A stretch of DNA of 64,000 bases, taken from NCBI GenBank assembly GCA_037440005.1, contig JBBIUY010000005.1, forward strand, positions 34,179 to 98,178, written 5' to 3'. Below, piece by piece: positions 26,304 through 55,601 of this stretch. Source of the stretch: Armatimonadota bacterium. GTDB taxonomy: Bacteria; Sysuimicrobiota; Sysuimicrobiia; Sysuimicrobiales; Kaftiobacteriaceae. Numbering within the stretch: the first letter of the stretch is position 1; every line of letters begins with the position of its first letter. Both the position numbers and the translations under genes were made by a program. The notes below the pieces were generated by a model. That model made no database searches. It was given only the letters and a program-made list of their open reading frames with translations, and was not told the origin of the DNA.

Positions 26304-26316
26304 GGCCCCGCCGGCC

Positions 26317-26622: not shown

Positions 26623-26632
26623 CCGGCGCCCC

Positions 26633-27103
26633 ATGGCCCGCCTGACGGTGGACGAGCTGGCGGCGCTGTTCGAGGGCCGCACGCGCTTTGTCGAGCGGCT
26701 GGCCGCCCTGGACGACCCCCTGGACAGGGCGGTGGAGGTGCTGCGGTCTCTGCCCGAAGAGGAGGTCGTCGAGGCCCTCAACGCTCACCCCCGCATCGGC
26801 GAGCGGCCGACCTCCCCCGCCGCGGCCGCCGAGCAGGGGACCGAGGACGACCCCGCGGTGCTGGCCGAGCTGGCGGCCCTCAATGCCGCCTACGAGCGCG
26901 CTTTCGGATTTCGCTTCGTGGTCTTCGTCAACCGGCGGTCCCGCTCGCAGATCATCCCGATCCTGCGCCAGCGCCTGCAGCGCACCCGCGCCGAAGAGCT
27001 GGCCACCGCCATCGAGGAGCTGGTGGCCATCGCCCGGGAGCGGCACGCGCAGAGGGAAAAGGGAAAAGGGAAGAAGGAAAAAGTGGAAGGCAAAACCGCA
27101 TAA
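26633..27103 (+). CDS. uraD: OHCU decarboxylase (2-oxo-4-hydroxy-4-carboxy-5-ureidoimidazoline decarboxylase)
   Basis: 'LNAHPRIGE' catalytic His motif. 'FVVFVNRRS'. C-terminal Lys/Gly/Glu-rich tail encoded by a polypurine tract. Ends in TAA. Confidence 0.75.
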   Translation: MARLTVDELAALFEGRTRFVERLAALDDPLDRAVEVLRSLPEEEVVEALNAHPRIGERPTSPAAAAEQGTEDDPAVLAELAALNAAYERAFGFRFVVFVNRRSRSQIIPILRQRLQRTRAEELATAIEELVAIARERHAQREKGKGKKEKVEGKTA

Positions 27104-27107
27104 AGGA

Positions 27108-27152
27108 GGGACCGGGCGGCTGAACCCCGCCCGGTCCCTTTCCCCTTTTTCC
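27108..27152. terminator. Bidirectional intrinsic terminator: GGGACCGGGCGG-ctgaacc-CCGCCCGGTCCC flanked by an A-rich and a T-rich run
   Basis: Perfect 12-bp stem with a 7-nt loop between convergent uraD (+) and the BMP SBP gene (-). A-rich on the upstream side and T/C-rich downstream, so it can serve both strands. Confidence 0.65.
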
Positions 27153-27212
27153 CCGCCCTTTTTCCCTTTCCTTTTTTCCTTTTCCCTTTTCCTTTTTCCC
27201 TTTTCCCTCCCT

Positions 27213-28370
27213 TCACGGCTCGTTCGGCCAGGGGCCGACCACGCCGGGAGCCGCCCACTCCAGGGTGATCAGCTCCTGCACGGTGAGGGTGTGGCCGGGG
27301 GGCACCCGCAGCACGCCCTTGCGGTCGCGGATGGGTCCGGTGAACGGGTCAAACTTCACCGGGTTCACCGACATCTGGGCGTGGCGGCGCAGGACCAGGT
27401 CGTACACCGACAGGGTGCCCAGGTCGGAAGTCCGCACCCGCACGGCCTTCAGCTGGTCGGTAAACAGCGGGTTGATCATCATCCCCGGCTCGGCCCCCAC
27501 CTCCACCGCCTTCTCGGCCAGCAGCCACCAGTAGTCCACGTTCTGCAGGTTGTCGGGGGTGTACTTGCCCGCCAGGACCTTGCGCAGGAAGTCCAGGTAG
27601 ATGGTCTCCCAGTGCACCAGCTGGCCCGAGATCACGTGCCGGGGGGCGAAGCGGTACATGGGCGAGTAGTGGGCGAAGCTCAGCAGGTTCTTCTTGGCCG
27701 CCTCCTGGATCACCGTGGGGGTGTCCTCGGTGAAGGCGAACACGTCCACCCCCTCGGCGATGAGGGCCTGGGTCGCCTCCTTGGCCTTGGCCGGGCTGAA
27801 CCACTCGAAGATCCACCGCACGTGCACCGTGGCCCGCGGGTTGACGGCCCGGACCCCCAGGGCGAAGGCGTTGAGGTGGCGCTTGACCTCGGGAATGGGG
27901 AACGCCCCCACGTAGCCCACCTTGTTGGTCCGGGTCAGGGCGCCGGCCATCAGGCCGTTGAGGTAGTACACCTGGTAGAAGTCGGCCATGTAGGTGGCCA
28001 TGTTGCGGGCCCGCTTGAACCCGCTGGCGTGGGCGAAGATGATGTTCGGGTACCGCTGGGCCGCCGCCAGGGTGCCGTCCATGAAGCCGAAGCTGGTGGT
28101 GAAGATCACCCGGGCGCCCTGGGCGACCAGGCGGTCGATGAACGGCTCCACGCGGCCCTCAGGGACCGACTCCACGTACAGGGTCTGGACGGGGAGCTGC
28201 TGCTCCACGATCCGCCTTCCCACGTCGTGGGCGTGGGTCCACCCGTAGTCCCCGATGGGCCCCACGTAGATGAACCCCACCTTCAGTTTCTGCTGCCCGT
28301 ATCCGGCGGCGGCCGCCGCCAGCAGGACGACGGCCAGCACCGATACCGCGATCCCACGTCTGCCCCTCAT
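27213..28370 (-). CDS. BMP-family ABC transporter substrate-binding protein (second system, embedded in the purine cluster)
   Basis: Start at 'MRGRRGIAVSVLAVVLLAAAAAG' (signal peptide) preceded by GGAGGTGGAGG. Paralog of the 1618..2865 protein. The absolute start coordinate is uncertain by about 1 nt. Confidence 0.75.
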   Translation of the reverse strand: MRGRRGIAVSVLAVVLLAAAAAGYGQQKLKVGFIYVGPIGDYGWTHAHDVGRRIVEQQLPVQTLYVESVPEGRVEPFIDRLVAQGARVIFTTSFGFMDGTLAAAQRYPNIIFAHASGFKRARNMATYMADFYQVYYLNGLMAGALTRTNKVGYVGAFPIPEVKRHLNAFALGVRAVNPRATVHVRWIFEWFSPAKAKEATQALIAEGVDVFAFTEDTPTVIQEAAKKNLLSFAHYSPMYRFAPRHVISGQLVHWETIYLDFLRKVLAGKYTPDNLQNVDYWWLLAEKAVEVGAEPGMMINPLFTDQLKAVRVRTSDLGTLSVYDLVLRRHAQMSVNPVKFDPFTGPIRDRKGVLRVPPGHTLTVQELITLEWAAPGVVGPWPNEP

Positions 28371-28491
28371 GGCTGCCTCCACCTCCGGCCTGATCATGCA
28401 CTGCGGGTTTGCCCGCTCACTTCGCTCTCCCCCCGCCCGGCCCCTTGTCGTTCGGCGGGGAAAGACGGACGTCTCCGCGGGAGCCCCCCGC

Positions 28492-29361
28492 TCACCGTTC
28501 GCCCCGGACGTACGGAACGCCCAGGGCCTCCGGCGCCTGGCCCGTCCGGGCCCCCCGCCGGGAGGTCAGGGCCAGCACCAGGATAGTGAACGCGAAGGGC
28601 ATCATCTGCAGGGGTTCGGGGGGAATCCACGTCTGGAGGCGGAACGACAGGTGGAACAGGGTGCCGAACAGCAGCGCCGCCCCCACCGCCCGCAGGGGGT
28701 CCCAGCCGGCGAAGATGGCCAGGGCCACCACGATCCAGCCCATGCCCCCGGTCATGCCCTCGGTCCACGCCGGCCGGTAGGCCACCGACAGGAAGCCCCC
28801 GGCGACGCCGGCCATCACCCCGCCGAAGACCACGGCCAGATAGCGCACCAGCTCCACCGGCACGGCCTGGGCGTCGGCGGCGGCCGGAGACTCGCCCACG
28901 GTGCGCAGGATCAGGCCCCACCGGGTGTGGTACAGCAGCGCCCACAGCAGCACCGCCGCCAGCACGCCCAGCGGCGGCAGGACCGACAGTTCCGGCAGCG
29001 GGTGGTCCAGGGGAAACCCTTCCCACCCGCGGCCCAGCAGCCCGGCCAGGCCCAGCCCCAGCATGGTCAGCGCCAGCCCCGAGACGTACTGGTTGGCCCG
29101 CAGGGTCACCGAGACGAACGCGTGGAGCAGGGCGGCCGCCCCGCCCACGCCGGCCGCCGCCAGCAGGCCCAGGACCGGGTGGCCGGTGGTCTGGGCGGTG
29201 GCGAAGGCGACGAAGGCGCCCAGGATCATCATCCCCTCCACCCCCAGGTTCACCACCCCCGCCCGCTCGGCGTAGATCTCCCCCAGGGCGCCCCACAGCA
29301 GGGGCGTGCCGAAGGCCATGCCCCGCACCAGCACGCTGGCGACCCACTCCAGCACCGTCAC
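28492..29361 (-). CDS. ABC transporter permease
   Basis: GTG start overlapping the upstream permease stop. Multi-TM. Confidence 0.7.
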   Translation of the reverse strand: MTVLEWVASVLVRGMAFGTPLLWGALGEIYAERAGVVNLGVEGMMILGAFVAFATAQTTGHPVLGLLAAAGVGGAAALLHAFVSVTLRANQYVSGLALTMLGLGLAGLLGRGWEGFPLDHPLPELSVLPPLGVLAAVLLWALLYHTRWGLILRTVGESPAAADAQAVPVELVRYLAVVFGGVMAGVAGGFLSVAYRPAWTEGMTGGMGWIVVALAIFAGWDPLRAVGAALLFGTLFHLSFRLQTWIPPEPLQMMPFAFTILVLALTSRRGARTGQAPEALGVPYVRGER

Positions 29362-30488
29362 TCCTCCCCCGGCGGCGCGCTCGCCCCGGCCGCCGCGGGC
29401 GCCTCCACCGCCACCCGGGCCGGCGCCCACCGGATCCGGTAGGCCAGCAGCCGCTCGCTGCCGATCAGGAAGAACAGGATCAGGCCGTTAAAGACGCTGG
29501 TGACCCGGAAGGGCATCTGCAGCGACACCTGCATCACGTCTCCCGCGCTGTAGATGAGGCCGAACAGCGCCGCGGTGAGCACCGCGGCCAGCGGGCGCCC
29601 CCGGGCCAGCCAGGCGACGATGATGCCGGTGTAGCCGTACCCCAGCGACACCTGGGTCGGGTCCAGCAGCTTGTGGTGCACCCCCGCCACCTCCCCCACC
29701 CCGGCCAGGCCCGCGGCGCCCCCGGACAGGGCCATGACCAGCAGGGTGGTGCGCAGGGCGCTGACGCCCACGTAGCGCGCGGCCTCGGGGTTTTCGCCCT
29801 GCACCCGGATCTCAAAGCCCAGGGTGGTCCGTCCCAGCAGCAGCGCCCCCGCCGCCGCCACCACCACGCCCACCACCAGGGTCGGCCAGTGGATGCGGGT
29901 CCCGGGGATCAGGGCCAGCCAGGCGTCGGCCGGAAACGGGTCGGTGTAGGCGAAGCCCCGGACGCTGGGTCCCTTCCACGGCCCGGTGACCAGCCAGCTC
30001 ACCAGGTACTGGGCCACGTAGTTCATCATCAGGGTGCTGATCACTTCGTTGACCGACAGCCGCAGCCGCAGCACCGCCGGCAGCAGGCCCCACAGCGCGC
30101 CGGCCGCGAACCCGGCCGCGAACATCGCCGGCAGCGTCATCGGTCCCCGCAGGCCGCTGAACAGGGCCACCCAGGTGGCGGCGACCGCCCCGGCCAGCAG
30201 CTGGCCCTCGGCGCCGATGTTGTAGACCTGGGCCCGGAAGGCCAGGACCAGTCCCGCCCCGACCAGCAGCAGCGGGATGGTGGGGCGCAGGACCTCGGGC
30301 AGGGTGCCCGGCGCCAGCAGGCCGTCGCGGACGATGACGGCGTAGGCCCGCACTGGGTCCAGCCCGTAAGCCCAGAAGACGGCCCCGGCGACGAGGAACG
30401 CGGCGACGACGGCGGCCGCCGAGACGGCCACCGTCCACCACCCCGTGGTCTCGGCGCGTTCGATGCGGAACGGGCCCACCTGCGCCAT
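29358..30488 (-). CDS. ABC transporter permease
   Basis: 376 aa polytopic. 'MAQVGPFRIERAETTGWWTVAVSAAAVVAAFLVAG'. Confidence 0.8.
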   Translation of the reverse strand: MAQVGPFRIERAETTGWWTVAVSAAAVVAAFLVAGAVFWAYGLDPVRAYAVIVRDGLLAPGTLPEVLRPTIPLLLVGAGLVLAFRAQVYNIGAEGQLLAGAVAATWVALFSGLRGPMTLPAMFAAGFAAGALWGLLPAVLRLRLSVNEVISTLMMNYVAQYLVSWLVTGPWKGPSVRGFAYTDPFPADAWLALIPGTRIHWPTLVVGVVVAAAGALLLGRTTLGFEIRVQGENPEAARYVGVSALRTTLLVMALSGGAAGLAGVGEVAGVHHKLLDPTQVSLGYGYTGIIVAWLARGRPLAAVLTAALFGLIYSAGDVMQVSLQMPFRVTSVFNGLILFFLIGSERLLAYRIRWAPARVAVEAPAAAGASAPPGEE

Positions 30489-30503
30489 GCCGGTCCGCCC
30501 CGT

Positions 30504-32051
30504 TCAGGACGCCGCCCGGCCCGCCATCCACAGGCCGATCTGCTGGCGGTCGGCGCCGGCGGGCACCACCGCCACCAGGCGTCCGTCGAACATGACCCCG
30601 ATCCGGTCGGACAGGGCCAGGATTTCGTCCAGGTCCTCGGAGACCAGCAGCACGCCGGCGCCCCGGTCCCGGTGCTCCAGCAGGAGCCGGTGGATGCGCT
30701 CGGTGGTGGCCACGTCCAGTCCCGCCGTGGGGTGGGAGGCGACGATCAGGGACGGATCCGCCGACAGCTCCCGGGCCAGGATCAGCTTCTGGATGTTGCC
30801 GCCGGACAGCAGCCGGGCGGGGCGGTGGGGGGACGGCGTCTGGATGTCGTGGGCGGCGATCAGGTCCGCCGCCGCCCGCAGGGCTTCCGCCGGGCGCAGG
30901 AGCAGGCCGCGGGCGAAGGGAGGGTCCGCATAGCGGCGCAGGATGAGGTTGTCGGCCACGGACATGGACGGGACGATGCCGGCGCGGGTCCGCTCCTCGG
31001 GGACGTGGGCCACCCCGGCCCGCGCCAGCTGCCGGGGCGTCCACCCGCGCACCGGGACACCGCGCAGCCGCACCTGTCCCCGGGCCGGCGGCCGCAGGCC
31101 TGTCAGGGCTTCCACCAGCTCCCGCTGCCCGTTGCCGGCCACGCCGGCGATGCCAAAGACTTCGCCCGCGGCCACGGTGAACGACACGCCCCGCACGGCG
31201 GGCCGGCCCCGGTCTCCGGCCACCCACAGGTCGCTCACCTCCAGGACCGGCGGCCCGGGCCGTCCCCGGCGCGGCGGCAGGGCCCGGTCCAGGTCCCGGC
31301 CCACCATCATGCGGGCCAGGGCGGCGGTGTCGGCGCCGGCGGCCGGCACCGTGCCCACCACCCGCCCCCGCCGCAGCACCGTCACCCGGTCGGCCACGGC
31401 CGTGACCTCGTCCAGCTTGTGGGTGATGAAGATGACCGACTTGCCCTCCCCCCGCATCCGCCGCAGGACCTCAAACAGCTGGGCGGCCTCCTGCGGGGTC
31501 AGCACGCTGGTGGGTTCGTCCAGGATGAGGATCTCCGCTCCCCGCAGCAGCGCCTTGAGGATCTCCACCCGCTGCTGCTCGCTGGCCGACAGCTGCCAGA
31601 CGGCGGCGTGAGGGTCCACCGCCAGCCCGTACCGCCGTCCGAACTCCTCCACCCGGGCGGCCACCTGCCGAACCGGCCGCCAGAAGGGGGTGCCGGCCGG
31701 CCCCAGGGCGATGTTTTCTGCCACCGTGTGCCGGCGCACCAGCAGGAAGTGCTGGGGGACCATGCCGATGCCGCAGGCGATGGCGTCCCGGGGAGAGTGG
31801 ATGCGGACCGGGCGGCCGTCCAGCAGGATCTCCCCGGCGTCGGGCTGGTACAGGCCGTACAGGATGTTCATCAGGGTCGTCTTGCCGGCGCCGTTTTCCC
31901 CCAGCAGCGCCAGGACCTCGCCCGCCCGCAGGTCCAGGCTGATCCGGTCGTTGGCGAGGACGCCCGGGAAGGACTTGGTGATGTTCCGGACGGCCAGCCG
32001 CACGGGGGCGGCGGACGACAGGTCGGCGGTCACACCCGCATCGGAGCGCAT
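30504..32051 (-). CDS. ABC transporter ATP-binding protein, tandem ATPase domains
   Basis: 'GENGAGKTT' and 'GVAGNGQRE' Walker A boxes. 'LSGGNIQK'. 515 aa. Confidence 0.85.
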   Translation of the reverse strand: MRSDAGVTADLSSAAPVRLAVRNITKSFPGVLANDRISLDLRAGEVLALLGENGAGKTTLMNILYGLYQPDAGEILLDGRPVRIHSPRDAIACGIGMVPQHFLLVRRHTVAENIALGPAGTPFWRPVRQVAARVEEFGRRYGLAVDPHAAVWQLSASEQQRVEILKALLRGAEILILDEPTSVLTPQEAAQLFEVLRRMRGEGKSVIFITHKLDEVTAVADRVTVLRRGRVVGTVPAAGADTAALARMMVGRDLDRALPPRRGRPGPPVLEVSDLWVAGDRGRPAVRGVSFTVAAGEVFGIAGVAGNGQRELVEALTGLRPPARGQVRLRGVPVRGWTPRQLARAGVAHVPEERTRAGIVPSMSVADNLILRRYADPPFARGLLLRPAEALRAAADLIAAHDIQTPSPHRPARLLSGGNIQKLILARELSADPSLIVASHPTAGLDVATTERIHRLLLEHRDRGAGVLLVSEDLDEILALSDRIGVMFDGRLVAVVPAGADRQQIGLWMAGRAAS

Positions 32052-32176
32052 ACCGGGGAGTTTGGCCGGCCAGCCGCCGCTTCCTTCCGCCGGGCCGGCG
32101 CCGGCGGGAGGACCGGCCCACTTCGGGCCGGCGGCAGGAATGGGACGAAACCCGCGTGGAATCGTGTTGGGTATCC

Positions 32177-33049
32177 GTGGACGTCTACCTGCCCCGCTCC
32201 CTGTCCGAGGCCCTGGAGCTGAAGGCGGCGCATCCGGAGGCGGTGCCCGTCGCCGGGGGCACCGACATCATGGTGGCCGTGAACTTCCACCGCCTGCGGC
32301 CGGACGCGTTCTTGGACCTCAGCCGCCTGGCAGAACTGCAGCAGTGGCGGGAGGAGGACGGGACCGTGTACGTGGGGGCGGGATTGACGTACACCCGCAT
32401 GGTCCGGGAGCTGGACTGGTGCGTGCCGCTGGTCCAGGCCGCCCGCACGGTGGGCTCGCCCCAGATTCGCAACCGGGGCACCCTGGGCGGCAACCTGGGC
32501 ACCGCCAGCCCCGCCGGGGACACCCTCCCGGTGCTGGCGGCCTACGACGCCGAGGTCGTCCTGGGCCGGGCCGGCGGGGCGGTGCGGGTGCTGCCCTGGT
32601 GGCAGTTCCTGCGGGGGCCCAAGAAGACCGCCCTGGCCCCCGACGAGCTCATCCTGGGCGCCCGGTGGCGGCGCCTGCGCGGTCCGGGGTCGTTCTCGAA
32701 GGTGGGCACCCGCAACGCCATGGTGATCGCCGTGGCGAGCCTGTGCCTGGTCTGCGACGAGGACGGGAGGACCGTGCGCGTGGCCCTGGGGTCGGTGGGC
32801 CCCACCATCCTGCGCGCCCCCGACGCCGAGCGGTTCGTCGCGGAGCAGATGCAGCGGGCCGGCGCGTGGGACGACCCCCGGGCGCCGCTGCCTGACCGGG
32901 TGGTGGAGGAGTTCGGCGAACGGGTGGCGGCCGCCGCCCGGCCCATCGACGATGTCCGGGGAACGGCGGCCTACCGGCGGCACGCCTGCGCGGTCCTGGC
33001 GCGCCGCGCCCTGCGGTGGGCGCTGGAGGACCGCAGGCTGGGCGGCTAG
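32177..33049 (+). CDS. Xanthine dehydrogenase FAD-binding subunit (CoxM/XdhB-like)
   Basis: 'AVPVAGGTDIMV', 'GSPQIRNRGTLGGNLGTASPAGD'. GTG at 32177 chosen by family N-terminus alignment. A start at 32156 is possible. Confidence 0.8.
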   Translation: MDVYLPRSLSEALELKAAHPEAVPVAGGTDIMVAVNFHRLRPDAFLDLSRLAELQQWREEDGTVYVGAGLTYTRMVRELDWCVPLVQAARTVGSPQIRNRGTLGGNLGTASPAGDTLPVLAAYDAEVVLGRAGGAVRVLPWWQFLRGPKKTALAPDELILGARWRRLRGPGSFSKVGTRNAMVIAVASLCLVCDEDGRTVRVALGSVGPTILRAPDAERFVAEQMQRAGAWDDPRAPLPDRVVEEFGERVAAAARPIDDVRGTAAYRRHACAVLARRALRWALEDRRLGG

Positions 33050-33062
33050 AGGAGGCGGCGCG

Positions 33063-33536
33063 GTGCTCGTACGGGTGAACGTCAACGGCGTGTGGCGGCA
33101 GGCCGACGTGTGGCCGGGGGCCAGCCTGCTCCTGCTGCTGCGGGACCACCTGGGGCTGGTGGGCAGCAAGAACGCCTGCGAGCAGGGCGAATGCGGCTCG
33201 TGCTCGGTGTGGCTGGACGACGAGCTGGTGTGCTCCTGCCTGGTCCTGGCCGCCCAGGCCGACGGGCGGACGGTGCGGACGGTGGAGTCCCTGGCCCACG
33301 GCGGCCGGCTGCACCCGGTCCAGGAGGCGTTCCTGGACGCCGGAGCGGTGCAGTGCGGGTTCTGCACCCCGGGGCTCGTGGTGGCGGTGGTGGACCTGCT
33401 CCAGCGCGACCCCTCCCCCTCCGAGGAGACGATCCGGGAGGCCCTGGCCGGCAACCTGTGCCGGTGCACGGGCTACCAGAAGATCCTGGACGCGGTGCGG
33501 CTGGCCGCGCAGCGCATGAGGACGGCGGAATCCTGA
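33063..33536 (+). CDS. Xanthine dehydrogenase [2Fe-2S] small subunit (CoxS/XdhC-like)
   Basis: GTG start. 'CEQGECGSCSV' plant-type cluster. 'QCGFCTPG' and 'CRCTGY' second cluster. Confidence 0.85.
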   Translation: MLVRVNVNGVWRQADVWPGASLLLLLRDHLGLVGSKNACEQGECGSCSVWLDDELVCSCLVLAAQADGRTVRTVESLAHGGRLHPVQEAFLDAGAVQCGFCTPGLVVAVVDLLQRDPSPSEETIREALAGNLCRCTGYQKILDAVRLAAQRMRTAES

Positions 33537-33568
33537 TCCCGGACCCCGGAGCCGCCGTCGGGGTAGGC

Positions 33569-34930
33569 ATGGCGTCGCTGCTCATCGACTCCTGTGAGGT
33601 CGTCGTGACCATGGACGACGCCGGCACGGAGATCGCCGGCGGGTCCGTGCTCGTCGAGGACGGCGTCATCACCTGGGTGGGCTCCGGGCCGCCTCCGCGG
33701 CCGGCCGAGGAGGTCGTCGGGGGGCGCGGCCTGGTGGCGGTGCCGGGCCTGGTCAACACCCACCACCACCTGTACCAGAGCCTCACCCGCGTCCGGGCCC
33801 AGGACCGGGGGCTGTTCGGCTGGCTGGAAGCCCTGTACCCGGTGTGGGCGGGGGTGGATGAGGAGTGGGTGGAGGTGGCGTCGGCGGTGGGGCTGGCCGA
33901 GCTGGCCCTGTCCGGCTGCGCCACCACCACCGACCACCACTACATCTTCCCCCGGGGTGCCGCACATCTGCTGGACGTCCAGGTGGACGTGGCCCGCCGG
34001 ATCGGCCTGCGGTTCCACCCCTGCCGGGGCTCGATGGACCTGGGCCGCAGCCGCGGCGGCCTGCCGCCCGATGACGTGGTGGAGGACACCGACGACATCC
34101 TGGCCCGCACCGAGGACGCGGTCCGCCGCCTCCACGACCCGCGGCCCGGGGCGATGGTCCGGGTGGCCGTCGCCCCCTGCTCGCCGTTTTCGGTCACGCC
34201 GCGCCTGATGAAGGAGTCCGCCGCCCTGGCCCGCCGGCTGGGGGTGCGGCTGCACACCCACATCGCCGAGACCCGGGACGAGGAAGCCTACTGCCGTCAG
34301 ACGTTCGGGGTGCGCCCGGTGGAGCTGCTGGACCGCTGGGGCTGGCTGGGACCGGACGTGTGGCTGGCCCACTGCGTGCACCTGAATGAGGCGGACATCG
34401 CCCGCATCGCCCGCGCGGGCACCGGGGTGGCCTGGTGCCCGACGTCCAACCTGCGGCTGGGGTCGGGCATCGCCCCGGCCCGCCGGTTGCTGGATGCCGG
34501 GGTCGCTGTCGGGCTGGCCGTGGACGGGTCGGCGTCCAACGACGGCGGCCACCTGCTGGCCGAGGCCCGCCAGGCGTTGCTCGTGTCCCGGGCCGGGGGC
34601 GACCCGGCGGCCCTCGGCGCCCGGGACGTGCTGCGCCTGGCCACACGAGGGGGCGCCCGGTGCCTGGGGCGGGAGGACATCGGCGCCCTGGCGCCCGGCC
34701 TCCGCGGGGACGTGGCGCTGTTTCCGGTGGACACGCTGGCGATGGCGGGGGCCGAGGCCGACCCGGTGGCGGCGCTGGTCTTCTGCTTCCCGCAGCGGGT
34801 CAGGCACCTGTTCGTGGACGGGCGGGCGGTGGTGCGCGACGGGCGCCTGGCGACCGCCGACGAGGACGCCATCGCCGCCCGGGCGAGGCGGCTGGGCCGG
34901 CGGATCGCACAGGGCGTCCCCGGCGGGTAG
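33569..34930 (+). CDS. TRZ/ATZ-family amidohydrolase (guanine / 8-oxoguanine deaminase-like)
   Basis: ATG at 33569. 'GLVNTHHHLYQS' metal-binding HxH. 'HTHIAE', 'HCVHL', 'GLAVDGSASN'. 453 aa. Inserted between the xdh small and large subunit genes. Confidence 0.7.
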   Translation: MASLLIDSCEVVVTMDDAGTEIAGGSVLVEDGVITWVGSGPPPRPAEEVVGGRGLVAVPGLVNTHHHLYQSLTRVRAQDRGLFGWLEALYPVWAGVDEEWVEVASAVGLAELALSGCATTTDHHYIFPRGAAHLLDVQVDVARRIGLRFHPCRGSMDLGRSRGGLPPDDVVEDTDDILARTEDAVRRLHDPRPGAMVRVAVAPCSPFSVTPRLMKESAALARRLGVRLHTHIAETRDEEAYCRQTFGVRPVELLDRWGWLGPDVWLAHCVHLNEADIARIARAGTGVAWCPTSNLRLGSGIAPARRLLDAGVAVGLAVDGSASNDGGHLLAEARQALLVSRAGGDPAALGARDVLRLATRGGARCLGREDIGALAPGLRGDVALFPVDTLAMAGAEADPVAALVFCFPQRVRHLFVDGRAVVRDGRLATADEDAIAARARRLGRRIAQGVPGG

Positions 34931-35028
34931 GGCCGGACCGAAAAGGGGCGAATGACCACCCACGCGGGCCGCCGCTTCCGGGCCGGCGGCGGTGGCCGGA
35001 ACCCGGTCAGTCAGGGGAGGGGTGACCG

Positions 35029-37389
35029 ATGAAAGTGGTGCCGCGCGTCCCCGGAGGGGTGGGCGAGAGCGTCCGCCGGGTGGACGGGGTCCCCAAGGTC
35101 ACCGGCGAGTTCCTGTTCGGCAGCGACCTCCGCACCGACGACATGCTGTGGGGCTACACCCTGCGCAGCCCCCACCCTCATGCCCGCATCGTCTCCCTGG
35201 ACGTCTCCGGCGCCCTGACCGTCCCCGGCGTCTACGCGGTCCTGGTGGCCGACGACGTGCCCGGGCGCAAGACGTACGGGCTGGAGCTGCCCGACCAGCC
35301 GGTCCTGGCCATGGACTGCGTGCGCTACCAGGGCGAGCCGGTGGCGATCCTGGCCGCCGTGGACCTGGAGGTGGCGCGCCGGGCCGCCGGGCAGATCCGG
35401 GTGGACTACGAGGTCCTGCCGGCGGTGACCGACATGGAGGCGGCCCTGCGCCCCGACGCGCCCCGGGTGCACCCCTGGGGCAACGTGCTGCGGCACATCC
35501 GGATCGTCCACGGCGACCCGTCCACGCCCGCCGACGTGTGGGTGGAGGGCTACTACGAGACCGGCATGCAGGACCAGGCCATGCTGGGCCCGGAGGCGGG
35601 TCTGGCGATCCCCGCCTCCGACGGAGGGGTGGACCTGTACGTGGCCACCCAGTGGCTGCACGTGGACCGGGACCAGATCGCCCCCTGCCTGGGGCTGCCT
35701 CCCGAGAAGGTCCGGCTGCACCTGGCCGGGGTGGGGGGCGCGTTCGGGGCCCGGGAGGACGTCAGCATGCACATCCACGCCTGCCTGCTGGCGCTGCGCA
35801 CCGGCCGGCCGGTGAAGATGGTCTACTCCCGGGAGGAGTCGTTCTACGGCCACGTCCACCGGCATCCGGCCCGGATCTGGATGCGCCACGGCGCCACCCG
35901 GGACGGCCGCCTGGTGAACGTGTACGCCCGGGTGCTCATCGACGGGGGCGCCTACGCGTCGTCGTCCACGGCGGTCATCGCCAACGCCAGCACCTTCGCC
36001 ACGGGCCCCTACGAGGTGCCCCACGCGCTGATCGAGGGCACCGCCGTCTACACCCACAACCCGCCCTGCGGCGCCATGCGGGGGTTCGGGGCGGTGCAGG
36101 CCTGCTTCGCCCACGAGGCGCAGATGGACAAGCTGGCCCGCGCCCTGGGACTGGACCCGGTGGAGCTGCGGCTGCGCAACGCGGTGCAGACCGGCTCGGT
36201 CCTGCCCACCGGGCAGGTCATCCGGGGCACCGCGCCGGTGCGGGAACTGATCCGCCGGTGCGCCGCCATCCCGCTGCCTGCCGAGCCGGCGGAGCGCCCC
36301 CCGCTGTCGTACCCCGGCGGGGCCGGCAACGTCAGCCGGGGCGAGCGGCTGCGGCGGGGCGTGGGGTTCGCCGTGGGCTACAAGAACGTCGCCTACAGCG
36401 AAGGGTTTGACGACTCGGCCGAGGCGCGGGTGCGCCTGTTCGCCGGGCCGGACGGCCCGGTGGCGGAGGTGCACAGCGCGGCGGCGGAGGTGGGCCAGGG
36501 GGTCCACACGGTCCTGGTGCAGATCGCCCGGGAGGAGCTGGGCATCCCGCAGGTGGTCCTGCGCACGCCCGACACCGCCGTGGGGTCCGCCGGCAGCAGC
36601 TCGGCGTCCCGCCAGACCATGATGTCCGGCGGAGCCGTCCAGCTGGCCTGCCGGGCCGTCCTGGAGGAGGTGTGGGACCGGGTGCGGCGGAGGGCCCGCG
36701 AGCGGAGGGAGCCTGTCCCCGGCGGCCTGGCCGTCCGGGACGGGGTGGTGTGGGCGGGCGAGCGGCCGGTGGGGCGTCTGGAGGAGTACCTGGACCCGCC
36801 CATCGAGGCGACCCGGACCTACCGCCACCGGCGTACCACGCCGCTGGACCGCCAGGGCCAGGGCGATCCGCACGTGACGTTCGCCTTCGCCGCCCAGCGG
36901 GCGGTGGTGGAGGTGGACGAGGAGCTGGGCCTGGTGCGGGTGGTGCAGATCGCCGCGGCCCAGGACGTCGGGCGCGCCCTGCACCCGCAGAACGTCTACG
37001 GCCAGATCGAGGGCGGCACGGCCCAGGGGCTGGGGCTCGCGCTGATGGAGGAGATCGTCCTGGACGAAGGCCGCCTGCGCAACCCGTCGTTCACCGACTA
37101 CCTGATCCCCACGATCCTGGACATGCCCCCGGTGGTGTCGGTCCTGATAGAGGAGCCCGAGCCGGGAGTTCCCTTCGGCGCCAAGGGGGTGGGCGAGCCG
37201 TCCACGGTGGTGTCCACCGCCGCCATCGTGGCGGCGGTGCGGGACGCCACCGGCCGGGAACTGAACCGGGTGCCCCTGAGGCCGGACGACATCGTCGGCC
37301 TGCGCCCGCCGGCCCGGTCGGCGGGGCCGCCGCCGGCTCCCGACGTGCCGTACCCCCAGCCGGTGCCCGTGGCCCTGGGATTCCTGTGA
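35029..37389 (+). CDS. Xanthine dehydrogenase molybdopterin-binding large subunit (CoxL/XdhA-like)
   Basis: 786 aa. 'VDGVPKVTGEFLFGSD', 'GGAFGARED', 'MRGFGAVQ', 'GVGEPST'. Confidence 0.85.
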   Translation: MKVVPRVPGGVGESVRRVDGVPKVTGEFLFGSDLRTDDMLWGYTLRSPHPHARIVSLDVSGALTVPGVYAVLVADDVPGRKTYGLELPDQPVLAMDCVRYQGEPVAILAAVDLEVARRAAGQIRVDYEVLPAVTDMEAALRPDAPRVHPWGNVLRHIRIVHGDPSTPADVWVEGYYETGMQDQAMLGPEAGLAIPASDGGVDLYVATQWLHVDRDQIAPCLGLPPEKVRLHLAGVGGAFGAREDVSMHIHACLLALRTGRPVKMVYSREESFYGHVHRHPARIWMRHGATRDGRLVNVYARVLIDGGAYASSSTAVIANASTFATGPYEVPHALIEGTAVYTHNPPCGAMRGFGAVQACFAHEAQMDKLARALGLDPVELRLRNAVQTGSVLPTGQVIRGTAPVRELIRRCAAIPLPAEPAERPPLSYPGGAGNVSRGERLRRGVGFAVGYKNVAYSEGFDDSAEARVRLFAGPDGPVAEVHSAAAEVGQGVHTVLVQIAREELGIPQVVLRTPDTAVGSAGSSSASRQTMMSGGAVQLACRAVLEEVWDRVRRRARERREPVPGGLAVRDGVVWAGERPVGRLEEYLDPPIEATRTYRHRRTTPLDRQGQGDPHVTFAFAAQRAVVEVDEELGLVRVVQIAAAQDVGRALHPQNVYGQIEGGTAQGLGLALMEEIVLDEGRLRNPSFTDYLIPTILDMPPVVSVLIEEPEPGVPFGAKGVGEPSTVVSTAAIVAAVRDATGRELNRVPLRPDDIVGLRPPARSAGPPPAPDVPYPQPVPVALGFL

Positions 37390-50904: not shown

Positions 50905-51471
50905 TCAGCGGGCTCCGGACAGAGACAGCAGCTCGTCGGTGAACGCCCGCATCTGGGCCAGGGTCAGCAGCCCCGTGTGGTGGCGGACGATCGTCCCGTC
51001 GGTGGCGATGAAGACGGTGGTGGGCATGCCCACCACGCCGAACGCGCGGACGACGTGGCCGTCGAAGGTGGTCCCCGTGGGGTAGGTCACGCCCAGCTGC
51101 CGGCGCAGGGCCTGTCCCTCCTCCCGGGACCCCAGGCCGATGAACGGCCCGACGTCCACGCCGACCAGCAGGTAGCGTCCCGGCCGGTGCGTCTGGTACA
51201 GGCGCTGGAAGTCGGGCATCTCCGCCCGGCAGGGGGGACACAGAGCCGCCCAGAAGTTGAGGACGACCGGCGCGCGCACCCACAGCGCCGACAGGGCGGC
51301 GGGAGGGTCCGGGTCCCTCCCGTCGGCGGCGTAGAAGACGATCTCCATGTCCGGCGCCGGCCGGCGGGCGGGAGCAGGCGCGGAGGGCGCCTCCGGCCGC
51401 GGGCGGATGGCCACCACGCCGACGCCGACCGCCGCGGCCAGGACCAGGGCGAGCACGAGAGCCCGTCGCAT
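50905..51471 (-). CDS. TlpA/ResA-like thiol:disulfide oxidoreductase, membrane-anchored
   Basis: N-terminal TM. 'VLNFWAALCPPCRAEMP' CxxC. 188 aa. Confidence 0.75.
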   Translation of the reverse strand: MRRALVLALVLAAAVGVGVVAIRPRPEAPSAPAPARRPAPDMEIVFYAADGRDPDPPAALSALWVRAPVVLNFWAALCPPCRAEMPDFQRLYQTHRPGRYLLVGVDVGPFIGLGSREEGQALRRQLGVTYPTGTTFDGHVVRAFGVVGMPTTVFIATDGTIVRHHTGLLTLAQMRAFTDELLSLSGAR

Positions 51472-51474
51472 GGA

Positions 51475-51840
51475 TCAGAACGTGATGATGGTGTATCCGT
51501 CCTCCAGCAACCGCCGCAGGCTGGGGTGGCCGTCGTGGTCTGCGAGCAGCGGGATGGTCTGCGCCTGAATCGTTTCCTGCACGCCGTAGGCGGCGGCGCA
51601 GTAGCGGCAGGCGCCGTACACCGCGTCCCGCACGGCGGCCAGCAGCGGGCCGTAGCGGTGGCCCGGGGAGGTGAGCTCGCCGAGCCAGCGGGTCCCGGCG
51701 CCGTCGAAGACGATCCGCACGTCGTCGCCGGCCTCGTGGAACTCCCTGGCCGCCTCCAGGGCGTTCACCACGCGCCCCAGGTCGCCGCGGGCGTCGGTGC
51801 CCGCCAGGATGATCAGTGCCACACGGTGCATCGGGTCCAC
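51475..51840 (-). CDS. DsrE/DsrF-like family protein
   Basis: 121 aa. 'VALIILAGTD', 'GACRYCAAAYG'. Confidence 0.6.
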   Translation of the reverse strand: MDPMHRVALIILAGTDARGDLGRVVNALEAAREFHEAGDDVRIVFDGAGTRWLGELTSPGHRYGPLLAAVRDAVYGACRYCAAAYGVQETIQAQTIPLLADHDGHPSLRRLLEDGYTIITF

Positions 51841-52005
51841 TCCTCCGTCGGAGTCGTCCGCCCGGGAGGGCGTGCGTCTTGAGTGTCGCCGGCCGTCCCG
51901 CCGGCGATCTGTGAGCGCGCTTACACCGGTCCCCGACCGGCGGCGCGGGGCCGCGGGAATAGGGATCGGGACGCCCGTCGTCAGACGGAAAGGGGGGAGA
52001 CGTCT

Positions 52006-52245
52006 GTGGCCAGGACGGTGGTGGTGTACACCCAGCCGGGCTGACTGTTCTGCGGCAAGGTGAAGGAGTTCCTTCGCCAGAAGGGCGTGCCGTTCGTGGA
52101 AAAGGACATCAGCCGGGATCCGGCGGCCCTGGACGAGCTGATGGAGAAGGGGTTTGCCGCCACGCCCGTCACCGTCATCGACGGTGAGGCGGTGGTGGGG
52201 TTCAACCGGTCCCGGCTGGAGCAGCTCCTGGGAGGGTCGTCATGA
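52006..52245 (+). CDS. Glutaredoxin-like protein with in-frame TGA at the first active-site Cys position (candidate U-x-x-C selenoprotein, or pseudogene)
   Basis: GTG 52006 after SD AAAGGGGGGAGA. 'VARTVVVYTQPG-TGA(52042)-LFCGKVKEFLRQKGVPFVEKDISRDP...TPVTVIDGEAVVGFN' is a complete Grx fold if the TGA is decoded. A 20-nt hairpin GGTGAAGG-AGUU-CCUUCGCC lies 15 nt downstream of the UGA. Confidence 0.45.
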
Positions 52246-52655
52246 GGTCCCACAGCCTGCAGGACCTGGGCCGGATCCTGGAGTCGGCGCGAACCATCGC
52301 CGTGGTCGGGCTGTCCAACAAGCCCGACCGGCCCAGCTACGAGGTGGCCTCCTACCTCAAGGAGGCCGGCTACCGGATCATCCCCGTCAACCCCACCATC
52401 GCGGAAGCCCTGGGCGAGACGTCCTACCGCAGCCTGCGGGAGATCCCCGAGCCCGTGGACGTGGTGCAGATCTTCCGCCGGCCCGCCGAGGTGCCGTCGG
52501 TGGTGGACGACGCCATCGCCATCGGGGCGAAGGTGGTGTGGATGCAGCCCGGGGCGGAGAACGAGGAGGCCGCGGCCCGGGCGGAGGCCGCCGGGCTGGT
52601 GGCGGTGGTCGGGGCCTGCATGATGACCGTGCACCGGGCGCTGGCCCGGAGCTGA
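52242..52655 (+). CDS. CoA-binding domain protein (YccU/YneT family)
   Basis: ATGA overlap with the Grx stop. 'TIAVVGLSNKPDRPSYEVASYLKEAGYRIIPVNP'. Confidence 0.75.
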   Translation: MRSHSLQDLGRILESARTIAVVGLSNKPDRPSYEVASYLKEAGYRIIPVNPTIAEALGETSYRSLREIPEPVDVVQIFRRPAEVPSVVDDAIAIGAKVVWMQPGAENEEAAARAEAAGLVAVVGACMMTVHRALARS

Positions 52656-52691: not shown

Positions 52692-53111
52692 ATGCGCATC
52701 GGCGAGCTGGCGCGCCGGACAGGGGTGTCGCCGCGCACCATCCGCTTCTACGAGTCGGTGGGCATCCTCTCCCCCCGGGCCCGCACCCCGTCCGGCTACC
52801 GGCTGTTCGACGATGAGGCCGTCCGACGGCTGGCGTTTGTCCGACGCGCCCGGCGGCTGGGGCTGTCGCTGAACGAGATCCGGGAGATCCTGGAGGTCTA
52901 CGACCGGGGGCAGGCTCCCTGTCCCCGCGTGGTCGCGCTGCTGGAGCGGAAGATTGCCGTCCTCAGCCGGCAGATCGCCGGGTTGCAGGCATTGCGCCGT
53001 GAGCTCCTCACCATCCGCCGGTCCGCCCGCCTGGCCGCAGAGGACGGGCCGCAGCCCCGGTGGGTGTGCCGGCTGATCGAGAGGCCTGCCGGGCGTGCAG
53101 GGGTCCGCTGA
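52692..53111 (+). CDS. cueR: MerR-family metal-responsive regulator (CueR-like)
   Basis: 'MRIGELARRTGVSPRTIRFYE' HTH. C-terminal Cys pair 'CPRV...CRL'. Immediately upstream of a CueR-type operator and copA. Confidence 0.8.
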   Translation: MRIGELARRTGVSPRTIRFYESVGILSPRARTPSGYRLFDDEAVRRLAFVRRARRLGLSLNEIREILEVYDRGQAPCPRVVALLERKIAVLSRQIAGLQALRRELLTIRRSARLAAEDGPQPRWVCRLIERPAGRAGVR

Positions 53112-53117
53112 CGCCCC

Positions 53118-53149
53118 TTGACCTTCCAGCCGTCTGGAAGGTACATCCT
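53118..53149 (+). promoter_or_regulatory. CueR-type promoter/operator: TTGACC -35, then dyad ACCTTCCAG-ccgt-CTGGAAGGT in a ~19-bp spacer
   Basis: Near-identical in architecture to E. coli PcopA (TTGACCTTCC...GGAAGGT). Seen directly at 53118-53149. Confidence 0.65.
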
Positions 53150-53198
53150 GACAGGTGACTTCCCGGCCGGATCCGCCCGCCGGGTGCCGGAGGGCGCG

Positions 53199-55601
53199 AT
53201 GGCCACGGTTCACCTCGGCATCGGAGGCATGTCCTGCTCCTTCTGCGCGGACACCCTGCGCCAGGCCGTCCGCCGCCTGCCCGGGGTGGAGGAGGTCAGC
53301 GTCAGCCTGGCCCACGAGGAAGCCCTGGTGCGGTACGACCCCGCCCGGGTGACCGAGGCGCAGATCGCCGACGCCATCCGCAGTGTGGGGTACACGGTCC
53401 GCGATCCCGCCCGGGCGCGCGCGTACGAGGACGAGGAGGCGGACCTGAGGCGGGAACGGGACCGGCTGCTGGTGGCGGCGGCGTTCACGTGGATGACGGG
53501 CGTGCTCATGGTCCTCATGTGGGTCGGCCGCCCGCTGCCGGCCGCGCGCTGGCTGATGCCCGCTCTGGCGGCGGGCACGGTGTTCGGCCCCGGCCTGGCC
53601 ATTCTGAAGATGGCCGGGGCGTCGCTGCGCCGGGGGATCCTCAACCAGCACGTGCTGCTGGAGCTGGCGGCGTTCGCCGGACTGGCCGGCGGGGCGCTGG
53701 GATTCGCCCGGCCGGACTTCCCCTCAGCCGACTTCTTCGCCGTGGCCACCTTCGTCACCACGTATCACATCCTCTCGGGCTACGCCTCCCTGCTGGTCCG
53801 CACCCGCGCCTCCCAGGCCGTGCGCAGGCTGCTGGCCCTGCAGCCGCCCACCGCCCGGGTCGTCCGCGACGGCCGCGAGGAGGAGGTGCCGGTGGAGCAG
53901 GTCCGGCCGGGCGACCTGGTGCGCGTCCGCCCCGGGGAGGCCGTCCCGGTGGACGGGGAGGTGGTCGAAGGGGCGTCGGCGGTGGACGAGAGCCTGGTGA
54001 CCGGCGAGCCCCTCCCCCGGGACACGGGACCGGGGGACGAGGTGATCGGCGGTTCCGTGAACACCTGGGGAACCCTGGTCGTCCGGGTCACCCGGGTCGG
54101 CGACGAGAGCTTCCTCCACCAGGTGGCCCGGTCGGTGGCGGAGGCCCGGGCCCTCAAACCCGGCATCGTCCAGCTGGTGGACCGCGTCCTGCGGTGGTAC
54201 GTCCCGGCGGTGCTGGCCGTGGCGGGCCTGTCGGCCGTCCTCTGGACCGCGGGGGCGTGGCTGGTCACAGGCCAGCCGTCCTGGGCGCGCGGCGTCTTCG
54301 CCGCCCTGGCCGTCCTGGTCATGGGCTATCCGTGCGCGTTGGGGATGGCGACGCCCCTGGCGATGATCCGCGGCGGAGGAGAGGCGGCGCGCAGGGGCAT
54401 CCTGATGCGCAGCGCCCAGGCCTTCCAGGCCCTCCCGGAGGTGACGACGGTGGTCCTGGACAAGACCGGGACGGTCACCGTCGGCCGGCCGCAGGTCACA
54501 GACGTGGTCGCCCTGGGCGCGGACGAGCGGGAGGTCCTCCGCCTGGCGGCCAGCGCCGAAGCGCCCTCCGAGCACCCGCTGGCCCGGGCGATCGTGGAGC
54601 GCGCGCGGTCGGCGGGCGTCGAACCCGCGCCGGTCCGCGACTTTGCCGCCGTGGCCGGACGCGGGGTCCGGGCGGTGGTGGAAGGCGTGCCGGTGCGGGT
54701 GGGCAGCCTGCGGTTCCTGCGGGAGGACGGGGCGGGCGGGCCCCTTCCCGAGGCCCTGCTCCGGTCCTGGGAGGAGGCGGGCAGGACCGTGGTGGGCGTG
54801 GCGGCGGGCGGCCGGATCGTCGGGGTGATCGCGCTGGGCGACCGGATCAAAGACGACGCATCCGACGCCGTCTCCCGGCTGAAGCAGCTGGGGATCCGGC
54901 CGGTGATGGTCACCGGGGACAGCGCGCGGGCCGCCCGGGCGGTGGCGGAGGCGGTGGGGATCGAGGAGGTGCGGGCCCAGGTCCTCCCCCAGGACAAAGC
55001 CGCCCACGTCCGGGCCCTCCAGGCCCGGGGACACCGGGTCGCCATGGTGGGGGACGGCATCAACGACGCCCCGGCGCTGATGCAGGCCGACGTGGGGATC
55101 GCCATCGGGGCCGGCACCGACATCGCCATCGAGTCCAGCGACGTGGTGCTGGTGGGAGACCGCCTGGGGGCGGTGGTGGACGCCTACCACATCGCCCGCA
55201 CCACCTACCGCAAGACCGTCCACAACCTGGCCCTGGCGTTTTCCTTCAACGGGGTCGGCGTGCCGGCCGCCGCCACGGGACTGGTCCACCCGGTGTGGGC
55301 CATGGCGGCCATGGTGGCCAGCGTGAGCGCGGTCCTGCTGAACTCCTTCGGCGGGAGGCTCCTGCCCAGACCCCGTGCAGCGGGTCCGGAGACGAGGGAG
55401 ATCGTCCTGACGGTCCCCTCCATGCACTGCGACCGCTGTGCCGACACCGTCCGGCGGACCCTGAGCGGGCTGGCCGGCGTGCTGGCGGTGCGGTCGGACC
55501 TGCCGACCAGGCGGGTGGCGGTGGTCGTGCGCGGCGGCGTCCGCAGCGAGGACCTCTGCGCCGCCCTCGGCAGGATCGGCCACGTGTGCGGGGACGCGTA
55601 G
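53199..55601 (+). CDS. copA: Copper-translocating P1B-type ATPase with N- and C-terminal HMA domains
   Basis: N-HMA 'GMSCSFCAD'. TM6 'GYPCALGMATP'. 'DKTGTVT', 'GDGINDAPAL'. C-HMA 'SMHCDRCAD'. 801 aa. Confidence 0.85.
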   Translation: MATVHLGIGGMSCSFCADTLRQAVRRLPGVEEVSVSLAHEEALVRYDPARVTEAQIADAIRSVGYTVRDPARARAYEDEEADLRRERDRLLVAAAFTWMTGVLMVLMWVGRPLPAARWLMPALAAGTVFGPGLAILKMAGASLRRGILNQHVLLELAAFAGLAGGALGFARPDFPSADFFAVATFVTTYHILSGYASLLVRTRASQAVRRLLALQPPTARVVRDGREEEVPVEQVRPGDLVRVRPGEAVPVDGEVVEGASAVDESLVTGEPLPRDTGPGDEVIGGSVNTWGTLVVRVTRVGDESFLHQVARSVAEARALKPGIVQLVDRVLRWYVPAVLAVAGLSAVLWTAGAWLVTGQPSWARGVFAALAVLVMGYPCALGMATPLAMIRGGGEAARRGILMRSAQAFQALPEVTTVVLDKTGTVTVGRPQVTDVVALGADEREVLRLAASAEAPSEHPLARAIVERARSAGVEPAPVRDFAAVAGRGVRAVVEGVPVRVGSLRFLREDGAGGPLPEALLRSWEEAGRTVVGVAAGGRIVGVIALGDRIKDDASDAVSRLKQLGIRPVMVTGDSARAARAVAEAVGIEEVRAQVLPQDKAAHVRALQARGHRVAMVGDGINDAPALMQADVGIAIGAGTDIAIESSDVVLVGDRLGAVVDAYHIARTTYRKTVHNLALAFSFNGVGVPAAATGLVHPVWAMAAMVASVSAVLLNSFGGRLLPRPRAAGPETREIVLTVPSMHCDRCADTVRRTLSGLAGVLAVRSDLPTRRVAVVVRGGVRSEDLCAALGRIGHVCGDA

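Follow-up and report, generated by a model that had tools for sequence, protein, structure and literature searches.

A glutaredoxin-like gene with a conserved in-frame TGA predicts a selenoprotein in a CSP1-3/Sysuimicrobiota-type bacterium

Introduction

Does an in-frame TGA in the active site of a small glutaredoxin-like gene mark a decayed gene, or is it the codon for selenocysteine (Sec)? This question is raised by positions 52006-52245 on the forward strand of a 64-kb stretch of contig JBBIUY010000005.1 (hereafter the window; 64,000 nucleotides), assigned to a bacterium labelled Armatimonadota. Here the codon TGA at 52042-52044 stands where the first redox cysteine of the glutaredoxin active site is expected. 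We find that the gene very probably encodes a glutaredoxin-like selenoprotein, namely a thiol/selenol oxidoreductase with the predicted active site Sec13-Leu-Phe-Cys16. As it is homologous to the Grx1 protein of Clostridium oremlandii (cGrx1), with Sec and Cys at the same residues, it is a newly added member of an already known selenoprotein family. Below we present the evidence from the coding frame, its relatives and a hairpin 3' of the TGA, weigh the rival explanations, and then consider the genomic context and the known systems to which the gene may be compared.

Results and discussion

A complete glutaredoxin domain extends across the TGA

Translation from the start codon GTG at 52006-52008 yields VARTVVVYTQPG, then the TGA at 52042-52044 and then LFCGKVKEFLRQKGVPFVEKDISRDPAALDELMEKGFAATPVTVIDGEAVVGFNRSRLEQLLGGSS, with no other interruption before the stop codon TGA at 52243-52245. 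The predicted product has 79 residues. Its part after the internal TGA begins with LFCGKVKEFLRQKGVPFVEKDISRD, and the C-terminal part reads VVGFNRSRLEQLLGGSS, with GGSS directly preceding the stop; the only Sec would be that at residue 13. A purine-rich stretch on the same strand, AAGGGGGGAG at 51990-51999, lies 6 nt 5' of the GTG and reads as a ribosome-binding site. When the TGA is taken as Cys, the Pfam Glutaredoxin profile (PF00462) covers residues 5-63 and profile positions 1-60 of 60, with a score of 59 bits against a gathering cut-off of 22.9 (E-value 5e-16). The full profile is matched only if the frame is read through the TGA. Because this match spans the entire profile, the 12 codons 5' of the TGA belong to the glutaredoxin domain, where they form strand beta-1.

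The TGA aligns with the first Cys of homologs bearing a CLFC motif and accordingly would encode the first (attacking) residue of a U-L-F-C site. The resolving Cys16 of this UxxC motif, encoded by the TGC at 52051-52053, aligns with Cys16 of the cGrx1 structure 7C10 and is a Cys without exception in the relatives described below (33 close and 39 NC10-type sequences). In alignment A1, comprising 32 sequences, T53 is invariant and P54 is retained in at least 90%; the latter is the Pro ahead of strand beta-3, at the cis-proline position of the thioredoxin fold. The classical glutathione-binding motif GG-x-DD is, on our reading, replaced by V-G-F-N, as in NrdH-like proteins. The claims of an earlier sequence-only reading, which had described a complete glutaredoxin fold in one frame from GTG 52006 with a sole interruption at the first redox cysteine, are thus borne out. 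That reading had also remarked that the track of open reading frames (ORFs) begins at an internal GTG, as indeed it does: the mechanically made ORF list starts the gene at the GTG at 52060-52062, which is the start chosen by gene callers, and gives the 61-residue product of the public record P0233.

The TGA codon is conserved across phyla

A homolog search with the protein recovered 235 matches, of which we inspected the best 120. Among these, 114 are calls of 58-65 residues that begin just after the TGA position, either at the codon right after it (M/V/L-FCGKVKEFL...) or at the VKEFL codon; only 6 are full-length, and 4 of the 6 have C-L-F-C. The Cys/Sec pairing is seen directly where the TGA-L-F-C of the window aligns with C-L-F-C in the protein records P0001, P0002, P0004 and P0005 and in the locus L033. 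A scan of one genome per species yielded 79 loci from uncultured bacteria. Their NCBI labels are mostly Armatimonadota (equivalent here to the candidate phylum CSP1-3) or NC10/Methylomirabilota/Rokubacteria, with a few Chloroflexota, Dehalococcoidia and Calditrichia. In most of the 79, the tblastn match covers query residues 1-75 across the TGA. At this position, 75 related gene copies have TGA (76 counting that of the window itself), two genes have TGT (L033 and L077), one has TGC (L075), one TTA (L062) and none TAA or TAG.

The 12-codon upstream peptide, M-A-(K/R)-x-V-(V/I)-V-Y-(T/S)-Q-P-G, is kept in all related genes, while the synonymous sites of the same codons vary (0.3-1.8 bits). Since the peptide is conserved while its synonymous sites vary freely, the stretch 5' of the TGA is translated and under purifying selection. 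The codon equivalent to the start GTG is ATG in 24 of the 33 close relatives and 38 of the 39 NC10-type genes, and either ATG or GTG throughout.

These patterns bear on the alternative, put forward in the sequence-only reading, that a TGC-to-TGA change has made the gene a pseudogene, yielding nothing functional or only a 61-residue fragment from GTG 52060 without the active site. In its favor, the gene callers give exactly this 61-residue ORF, and another gene in the window, of the DinB family, appears to bear a genuine TGG-to-TGA nonsense change (TGA 17636). However, the identical TGA recurs in 75 related copies across phyla and is never exchanged for TAA or TAG, and purifying selection acts on the 12 upstream codons as well as on the L-F-C-G-K segment. 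Nor is GTG 52060 retained as a start, its equivalent codon being GAG in all 39 NC10-type orthologs; the fragment beginning there would lack strand beta-1 and the entire redox site; and the RNA-level constraint on the hairpin discussed below would be left unexplained. As the stretch 5' of the TGA is translated and under purifying selection, we reject both the pseudogene and the internal start, and regard this explanation as very unlikely.

Could the TGA instead stem from an error in sequencing or assembly, with TGC as the true codon? The window does belong to an uncultured organism whose genome was recovered from a metagenome. However, an independent Logan assembly of the SRA run SRR11582147 agrees with it at 100% identity over a length of 12.4 kb, TGA included, and the TGA is shared by dozens of other assemblies. 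The closest relative, L001 (Ca. Calidihabitans tengchongensis, CSP1-3/Sysuimicrobiota), is syntenic with the window, shares the TGA and folds an identical hairpin; its DNA identity is 84-88% over most of the shared stretch and about 78% across the glutaredoxin locus. The chance of such an error is negligible. The similarity to L001 also marks the window as coming from a related, uncultured bacterium of hot-spring type.

One might also propose that this organism does not use TGA as a stop, owing to a reassigned code, or that TGA is generally read through, with no dedicated mechanism involving a selenocysteine insertion sequence (SECIS). A database homolog, P0023, with Trp at the position in question would fit such a proposal. 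However, TGA is the stop codon of 31 of the 46 confident genes of the window, including the glutaredoxin gene itself; in P0023 the codon is indeed TGG, and its contig is short and heavily mutated; and the window has just one other internal in-frame TGA, a nonsense change at a Trp codon. Hence, we find a reassigned code or general readthrough hardly credible. That other TGA lies at 17636-17638 in a DinB_2-family gene (17504-18025, forward strand), which we considered and rejected as a second selenoprotein: the homologs examined all have Trp (AHWRPHP) and there is no associated hairpin. It is also present in an independent Logan assembly (L086), and looks like a TGG-to-TGA nonsense mutation that has left a pseudogene or a leaky stop.

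In two relatives the TGA is gone but no Cys stands in its place. In the Anaerolineae locus L062 (position 10028) it is replaced by TTA (Leu) and the hairpin is intact, while L085, a short and heavily substituted contig with a degraded hairpin, has TGG (the W of SQPSWLFCGK). Recent inactivation or errors in the sequence may account for both cases.

A hairpin 3' of the TGA is maintained by selection on the RNA

The minimum-free-energy (MFE) fold of the region 3' of the TGA, at -13.3 kcal/mol, is a hairpin at 52059-52078 on the forward strand with an 8-bp stem, GGUGAAGG/CCUUCGCC (arms 52059-52066 and 52071-52078), and the apical loop AGUU (52067-52070). It lies within the codons for K-V-K-E-F-L-R-Q. 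The stem begins 14 nt past the TGA, and the spacing from TGA to loop is 22 nt. For bacterial SECIS (bSECIS) elements, the constraints of Zhang and Gladyshev (2005), as summarised in PMC13188914, are a loop of 3-9 nt with a G within its first two positions, a stem of 4-16 bp, an MFE of -7.5 kcal/mol or lower, and 16-37 nt from the UGA to the loop. The hairpin lies within all these bounds, having a loop of 4 nt with G second and followed by U, and the stem, energy and spacing given above.

The TGA-bearing relatives all fold the same hairpin at the same place, with energies of -7.4 to -15.5 kcal/mol and the weakest, in L066, at -5.3 kcal/mol. In CSP1-3-type genes it takes the form G-GUGAAGG-AGUU-CCUUC(G/A)C-C and in NC10-type genes GAGAAAG-AGUU(U/C)-CUUUCUC. 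The stem is GCGAAAG...CUUUCGC in L078 and GCUGAAAG...CUUUCAGC in L071. The Cys-type genes L033, L075, L077 and L083 are without it, three Cys-type genes folding into other shapes at -2.3 to -5.8 kcal/mol. In L082, the closest Cys form, there is a weakened remnant with an A-G mismatch.

We next compared the stem across 61 distinct sequences in a structural alignment, in which an N was placed in 4-nt loops to hold the arms in register. At the seven core pairs, at least 98% of the cells hold paired bases, and compensatory changes occur at two of the stem pairs, each with many double changes: columns 20-36 (AU in 35 sequences, UA in 16, UG in 8 and CG in 1) and columns 24-32 (AU in 37, GC in 22 and GU in 2). 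The covariation score is 0.270 versus 0.106 for shuffled alignments, none of 500 of which reach 0.270, and 0.01-0.13 when the partners are slid.

The codons tell the same story. Among 33 distinct CSP1-3-type genes, zero synonymous entropy is found only at the six hairpin codons GTG AAG GAG TTC CTT CAC/CGC. The rare Leu codon CTT is present in all 33, while other codons average 1.06 bits, and 100,000 random draws of six codons include no set with a value this low. Likewise, in the NC10-type set the hairpin codons show 0.19 versus 1.14 bits. We conclude that the hairpin is maintained by RNA-level selection, as seen in its covariation, in the suppression of synonymous change and in its loss in Cys forms. 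The six frozen codons offer a clear case of a SECIS constraining the protein sequence, in that they fix the K-E-F-L motif.

The 8-bp stem with an AGUU loop at a spacing suited to a bSECIS, which had been proposed from the window alone, therefore withstands closer inspection, and the comparison of orthologs that had been suggested along with it returns a conserved TGA with compensatory changes in the hairpin and frozen synonymous sites. Taken together, the conservation of the TGA, the selection on the upstream peptide, the retention of the hairpin, its loss in Cys homologs and the homology to cGrx1 support the proposed U-x-x-C selenoprotein.

Selenocysteine or cysteine at the UGA

Several results weigh against a selenoprotein. 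ARAGORN recovered no tRNA-Sec, either in the 64 kb of the window or in about 1 Mb of flanking DNA at the 79 related loci, and tblastn searches of the window and these flanks with the E. coli SelA, SelB and SelD proteins (E-value 1e-3) did not find selA, selB or selD. The folding energy of the single sequence is no better than that of shuffles (z = -0.31 over 65 nt), and Rfam gives no match at the gathering score; at E-values up to 10, only a meaningless match to mir-648 appears and none falls on the hairpin. The alignment used for covariation was fitted to the structure, and its double changes mostly split two clades, amounting to few independent events. Finally, the protein falls below the curated cut-offs of all the NCBIfam glutaredoxin-like models. 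As regards the hairpin, single-sequence energy is uninformative at the 74% G+C of the window, and it is therefore the relatives alone that show it to exceed chance. The synonymous-entropy test is independent of the covariation and thus escapes both caveats of the alignment, namely the fitting to structure and the clade split. As to the machinery, selABCD genes are reported in Armatimonadota and Methylomirabilota metagenome-assembled genomes (MAGs) (PMC13582414), and one Methylomirabilota MAG is predicted to have 63 selenoprotein genes (PMC13582414; PMC13188914).

The strongest rival retains both the SECIS and SelB: Cys would be inserted at the UGA by way of tRNA-ReC (SelC*), either always or when selenium is scarce, to give a CLFC glutaredoxin. 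Genes resembling that for tRNA-ReC are found beside the canonical tRNA-Sec in five of five Armatimonadota genomes with UXXU hydrogenases (PMC13582414), and UGA-to-Cys recoding needs a SECIS and SelB (Vargas-Rodriguez et al., 2018, as cited in PMC13582414). The conservation of the TGA, the hairpin and its covariation fit Cys insertion equally well. However, should CSP1-3 rank as a phylum of its own in GTDB, the Armatimonadota of the above hydrogenase study, which follows GTDB taxonomy, may exclude the lineage of the window. Constant insertion of Cys would leave a TGA and a constrained hairpin unmotivated in 75 copies, when a single change to TGC or TGT suffices; where this change has taken place, the hairpin has decayed. 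Moreover, the closest characterised homolog, cGrx1, is a true selenoprotein, and the window holds no tRNA of any kind as judged by ARAGORN. We accordingly consider Cys insertion unlikely, and the Sec-containing glutaredoxin remains by far the better account.

Other genes with TGA at Cys positions in related genomes

Composition filters were needed in the scan for Cys/Sec pairs across all the loci, since without them false positives arose in the thousands where G+C-rich DNA is read in non-coding frames. The filtered scan gave several further candidate families. The first is an LMWP-type (pI258-family) arsenate reductase, ArsC, with TGA at the catalytic P-loop Cys in the motif V-x-F-V-[U]-x-x-N-S-x-R-S-Q-M. 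Four CSP1-3-type MAGs with the Sec-glutaredoxin have it (minus strand; L002 at 16246, L003 at 13517, L007 at 9475 and L021 at 9265), and it is probably of the Sec type in all four.

The second comprises pyridine-nucleotide disulfide oxidoreductases with TGA at a catalytic Cys, found in L005, L011, L012, L036 and L049. In L005 (4363), L011 (5338) and L012 (8483) the gene lies 1.6 kb upstream of the Sec-glutaredoxin and has the TGA at the first redox Cys, in GGT[U]INVGCIPTK (U-x4-C). Its hairpin there, GUGGGG/CCCCAC with the loop UGUAU, is 12 nt from the TGA, which is under the usual bSECIS spacing. A MerA-like form of the oxidoreductase, with the motif GTCLGRG[U]IPKK (C-x4-U), is seen in Rokubacteria/NC10-type MAGs.

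The third is a MerB-like lyase with an in-frame TGA at a Cys position (L034 at 3111, L036, L042 at 9617 and L049), with the motif FTSL[U]TTLNFFRSEEHLRAW and 10 Cys-type homologs in other loci. In the Rokubacteria/NC10-type loci L036 (9832 and 10711) and L049 (2443 and 3139), the Sec-glutaredoxin is flanked by TGA-bearing MerB-like and MerA-like genes, both of which have hairpins with fdhF-like GGUC loops 3' of the TGA. The three genes together look like a mercury-type cluster of three selenoproteins. These TGA-at-Cys genes in related MAGs lend indirect support to the use of Sec.

Predicted decoding and catalysis

On the pattern of the established bacterial mechanism, we infer that ribosomes would initiate at GTG 52006 and avoid termination at the UGA at 52042-52044, where the hairpin at 52059-52078, including its GU-containing apical loop 22 nt 3' of the UGA, would recruit SelB carrying Sec-tRNA(Sec). 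Sec would be inserted, with translation then proceeding to the TGA at 52243. By homology to cGrx1, Sec13, at the N-terminus of helix 1, is predicted to attack a disulfide or sulfenate of the substrate, and Cys16 to resolve the intermediate by forming an internal selenenylsulfide. The glutaredoxin might then be re-reduced by thioredoxin reductase or a low-molecular-weight thiol; NrdH-like proteins use thioredoxin reductase. A role as a reductant within a metal-stress operon, formed with the CoA-binding, MerR-family and P1B ATPase genes described below, is likewise a prediction, with proteins of metal or metalloid stress as the presumptive clients.

Gene neighborhood and possible function

The glutaredoxin gene heads a run of genes on the forward strand. 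Its stop overlaps the ATG (as ATGA) of a CoA_binding_2 (YccU-like) gene at 52242-52655 (Pfam PF13380, E-value 3e-43). This is followed after 36 nt by a MerR-family metal-responsive regulator at 52692-53111 (Pfam MerR-DNA-bind and MerR_1; NCBIfam CadR-PbrR, ZntR and CueR are all below cut-off), and 6 nt further by a P1B-type heavy-metal ATPase at 53118-55601 (TIGR01525, 557 bits versus a cut-off of 346). The ATPase has N- and C-terminal HMA domains, which are also listed for the same gene in L087. On the minus strand, divergent to the glutaredoxin, is a DsrE-like gene of the Cys form, CRYC, at 51475-51840 (Pfam PF02635, E-value 2e-5). Downstream of it lies a gene for a membrane-anchored TlpA/ResA-like thiol:disulfide oxidoreductase with CPPC at 50905-51471 on the same strand (Pfam AhpC-TSA and Redoxin; NCBIfam ResA and TlpA below cut-off). 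The island of thiol-redox and metal genes that had been noted around the locus is thus confirmed in kind, with the reservation that the regulator, then called CueR, falls below the cut-off of the CueR model.

Of the 33 closest loci (L001-L033), 25 retain the pair of glutaredoxin and CoA_binding_2 genes, as do the Cys-type loci L082 and L083/L084, and the CoA_binding_2 gene is likely a translationally coupled partner. A DsrE-like homolog occupies the same place in L001, and the TlpA-like gene the same position in 8 of the closest loci. In the NC10-type loci, a MerB-like gene is directly upstream in 14 and downstream in one (L034), and an LMWP-type ArsC is nearby in 10.

These contexts allow the tentative and still rather doubtful proposal that this clade of glutaredoxins acts as the dedicated selenol reductant of a metal and metalloid detoxification module, as opposed to a general redox housekeeping protein. 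A further option at the same low level of confidence is that the glutaredoxin and the CoA_binding_2 protein form a CoA-linked (de-CoAlating) redox couple, in a host that may lack glutathione.

The 165-bp divergent intergenic region 5' of the glutaredoxin gene contains two palindromes, a perfect one at 51886-51907 (TCGCCGGC-N6-GCCGGCGA) and one with a single mismatch at 51910-51925 (TGTGAGCGCGCTTACA). They are candidate operators, perhaps targeted by the MerR-family regulator encoded downstream. A consensus scan of this region found no sigma-70-like promoter.

Elsewhere in the window, at 31982-37389 and 23878-30503, is a purine-catabolism neighborhood with FAD and molybdopterin subunits of the xanthine-dehydrogenase type, two amidohydrolases, an adenine deaminase and a Bmp-type nucleoside ABC transporter. 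Among xanthine dehydrogenases there are some that require a selenium cofactor. If the enzyme of the window were one of these, the locus would provide a second link to selenium.

Implications

The most immediate consequence is a correction of annotation: the gene and more than 100 of its orthologs are publicly listed as 'glutaredoxin family proteins' of 58-65 residues, which are without an active site, while the true products of the short-called orthologs would be UxxC selenoproteins of 75-85 residues. The gene also implies decoding of UGA as Sec in the candidate phylum CSP1-3 (Sysuimicrobiota), thereby widening the taxonomic reach of the family. Members of CSP1-3 are thermophilic, facultatively anaerobic chemoautotrophs, and the paper describing the phylum is silent on selenium. 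The recurrent siting of the gene by metal-resistance genes, some of them apparently also encoding selenoproteins, provides a testable lead on function. The known mechanism of selenoprotein synthesis is left unchanged.

Comparison with known systems

Sec-glutaredoxins are known as a family since the mid-2000s: glutaredoxin already features in comparative lists of selenoproteins from 2006 (PMC1794560), and it is one of the bacterial selenoprotein families that a 2026 review treats as verified by experiment (PF00462, UxxC; PMC13188914). The best-characterised relative is cGrx1 from strain OhILAs, a native selenoprotein with a U(or C)PXC site, in which the catalytic Sec was replaced by Cys for expression and crystallography (PDB 7C10, 7C12 and 7C13; PMC7642778; see also Kim et al., 2011, Mol Microbiol). 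Its structure 7C10 is the nearest solved one, the window protein being 54% identical to it over 76 residues without a gap. The two are of the same length class, share the PF00462 UxxC domain with Sec13 and Cys16 at matching residues, and have in common a V-K-E-F-L segment, encoded in the window by the stretch that forms the SECIS hairpin, and a C-terminal V-V-G-F-(N/D)-R motif. This likeness is at the protein level. Unlike the U-P-H-C of cGrx1, the site of the window protein is U-L-F-C, without the usual proline (U-G-A-C in NC10-type relatives). The host of cGrx1 is a Clostridium, whereas that of the window is an uncultured bacterium of the CSP1-3/Sysuimicrobiota type with 74% G+C. The described partner of cGrx1 is the selenoprotein MsrA, whereas the window protein has a CoA-binding protein and a metal-resistance module as its partners, with no MsrA nearby.

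The protein also resembles NrdH and YruB in being a small (75-85 residues) glutaredoxin fold with an N-terminal CxxC and (S/V)GF(R/N) in lieu of GG-x-DD. The NrdH/YruB-like PDB entries 1R7H, 1H75 and 4HS1 are matched at E-values of 1e-10 to 1e-8, and the best NCBIfam matches, both below cut-off, are TIGR02196 (YruB; 72.0 versus 88.55) and TIGR02194 (NrdH; 62.3 versus 85.75). It differs from these proteins in having Sec in place of the first Cys, as predicted here, and in the window being without a ribonucleotide-reductase or rubredoxin context.

With the UXX-star glutaredoxin-like selenoproteins it shares a glutaredoxin-like fold and weak matches to their NCBIfam models, all below cut-off (NF041212 at 57.2 bits against a cut-off of 66, NF041114 at 27 and NF041211 at 48). 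NF041114 has a UxxT motif and two Sec (PMC13188914), whereas the window protein has a single N-terminal Sec in U-L-F-C. The name of NF041212 suggests a C-terminal U-x-x-stop, which the window protein lacks. At the RNA level, the hairpin is like the E. coli fdhF SECIS and the bSECISearch consensus in being a stem-loop in the coding region directly 3' of the UGA, but differs from the fdhF SECIS in its AGUU(U/C) loop, as opposed to GGUC, and in having no evident bulged U or lower stem.

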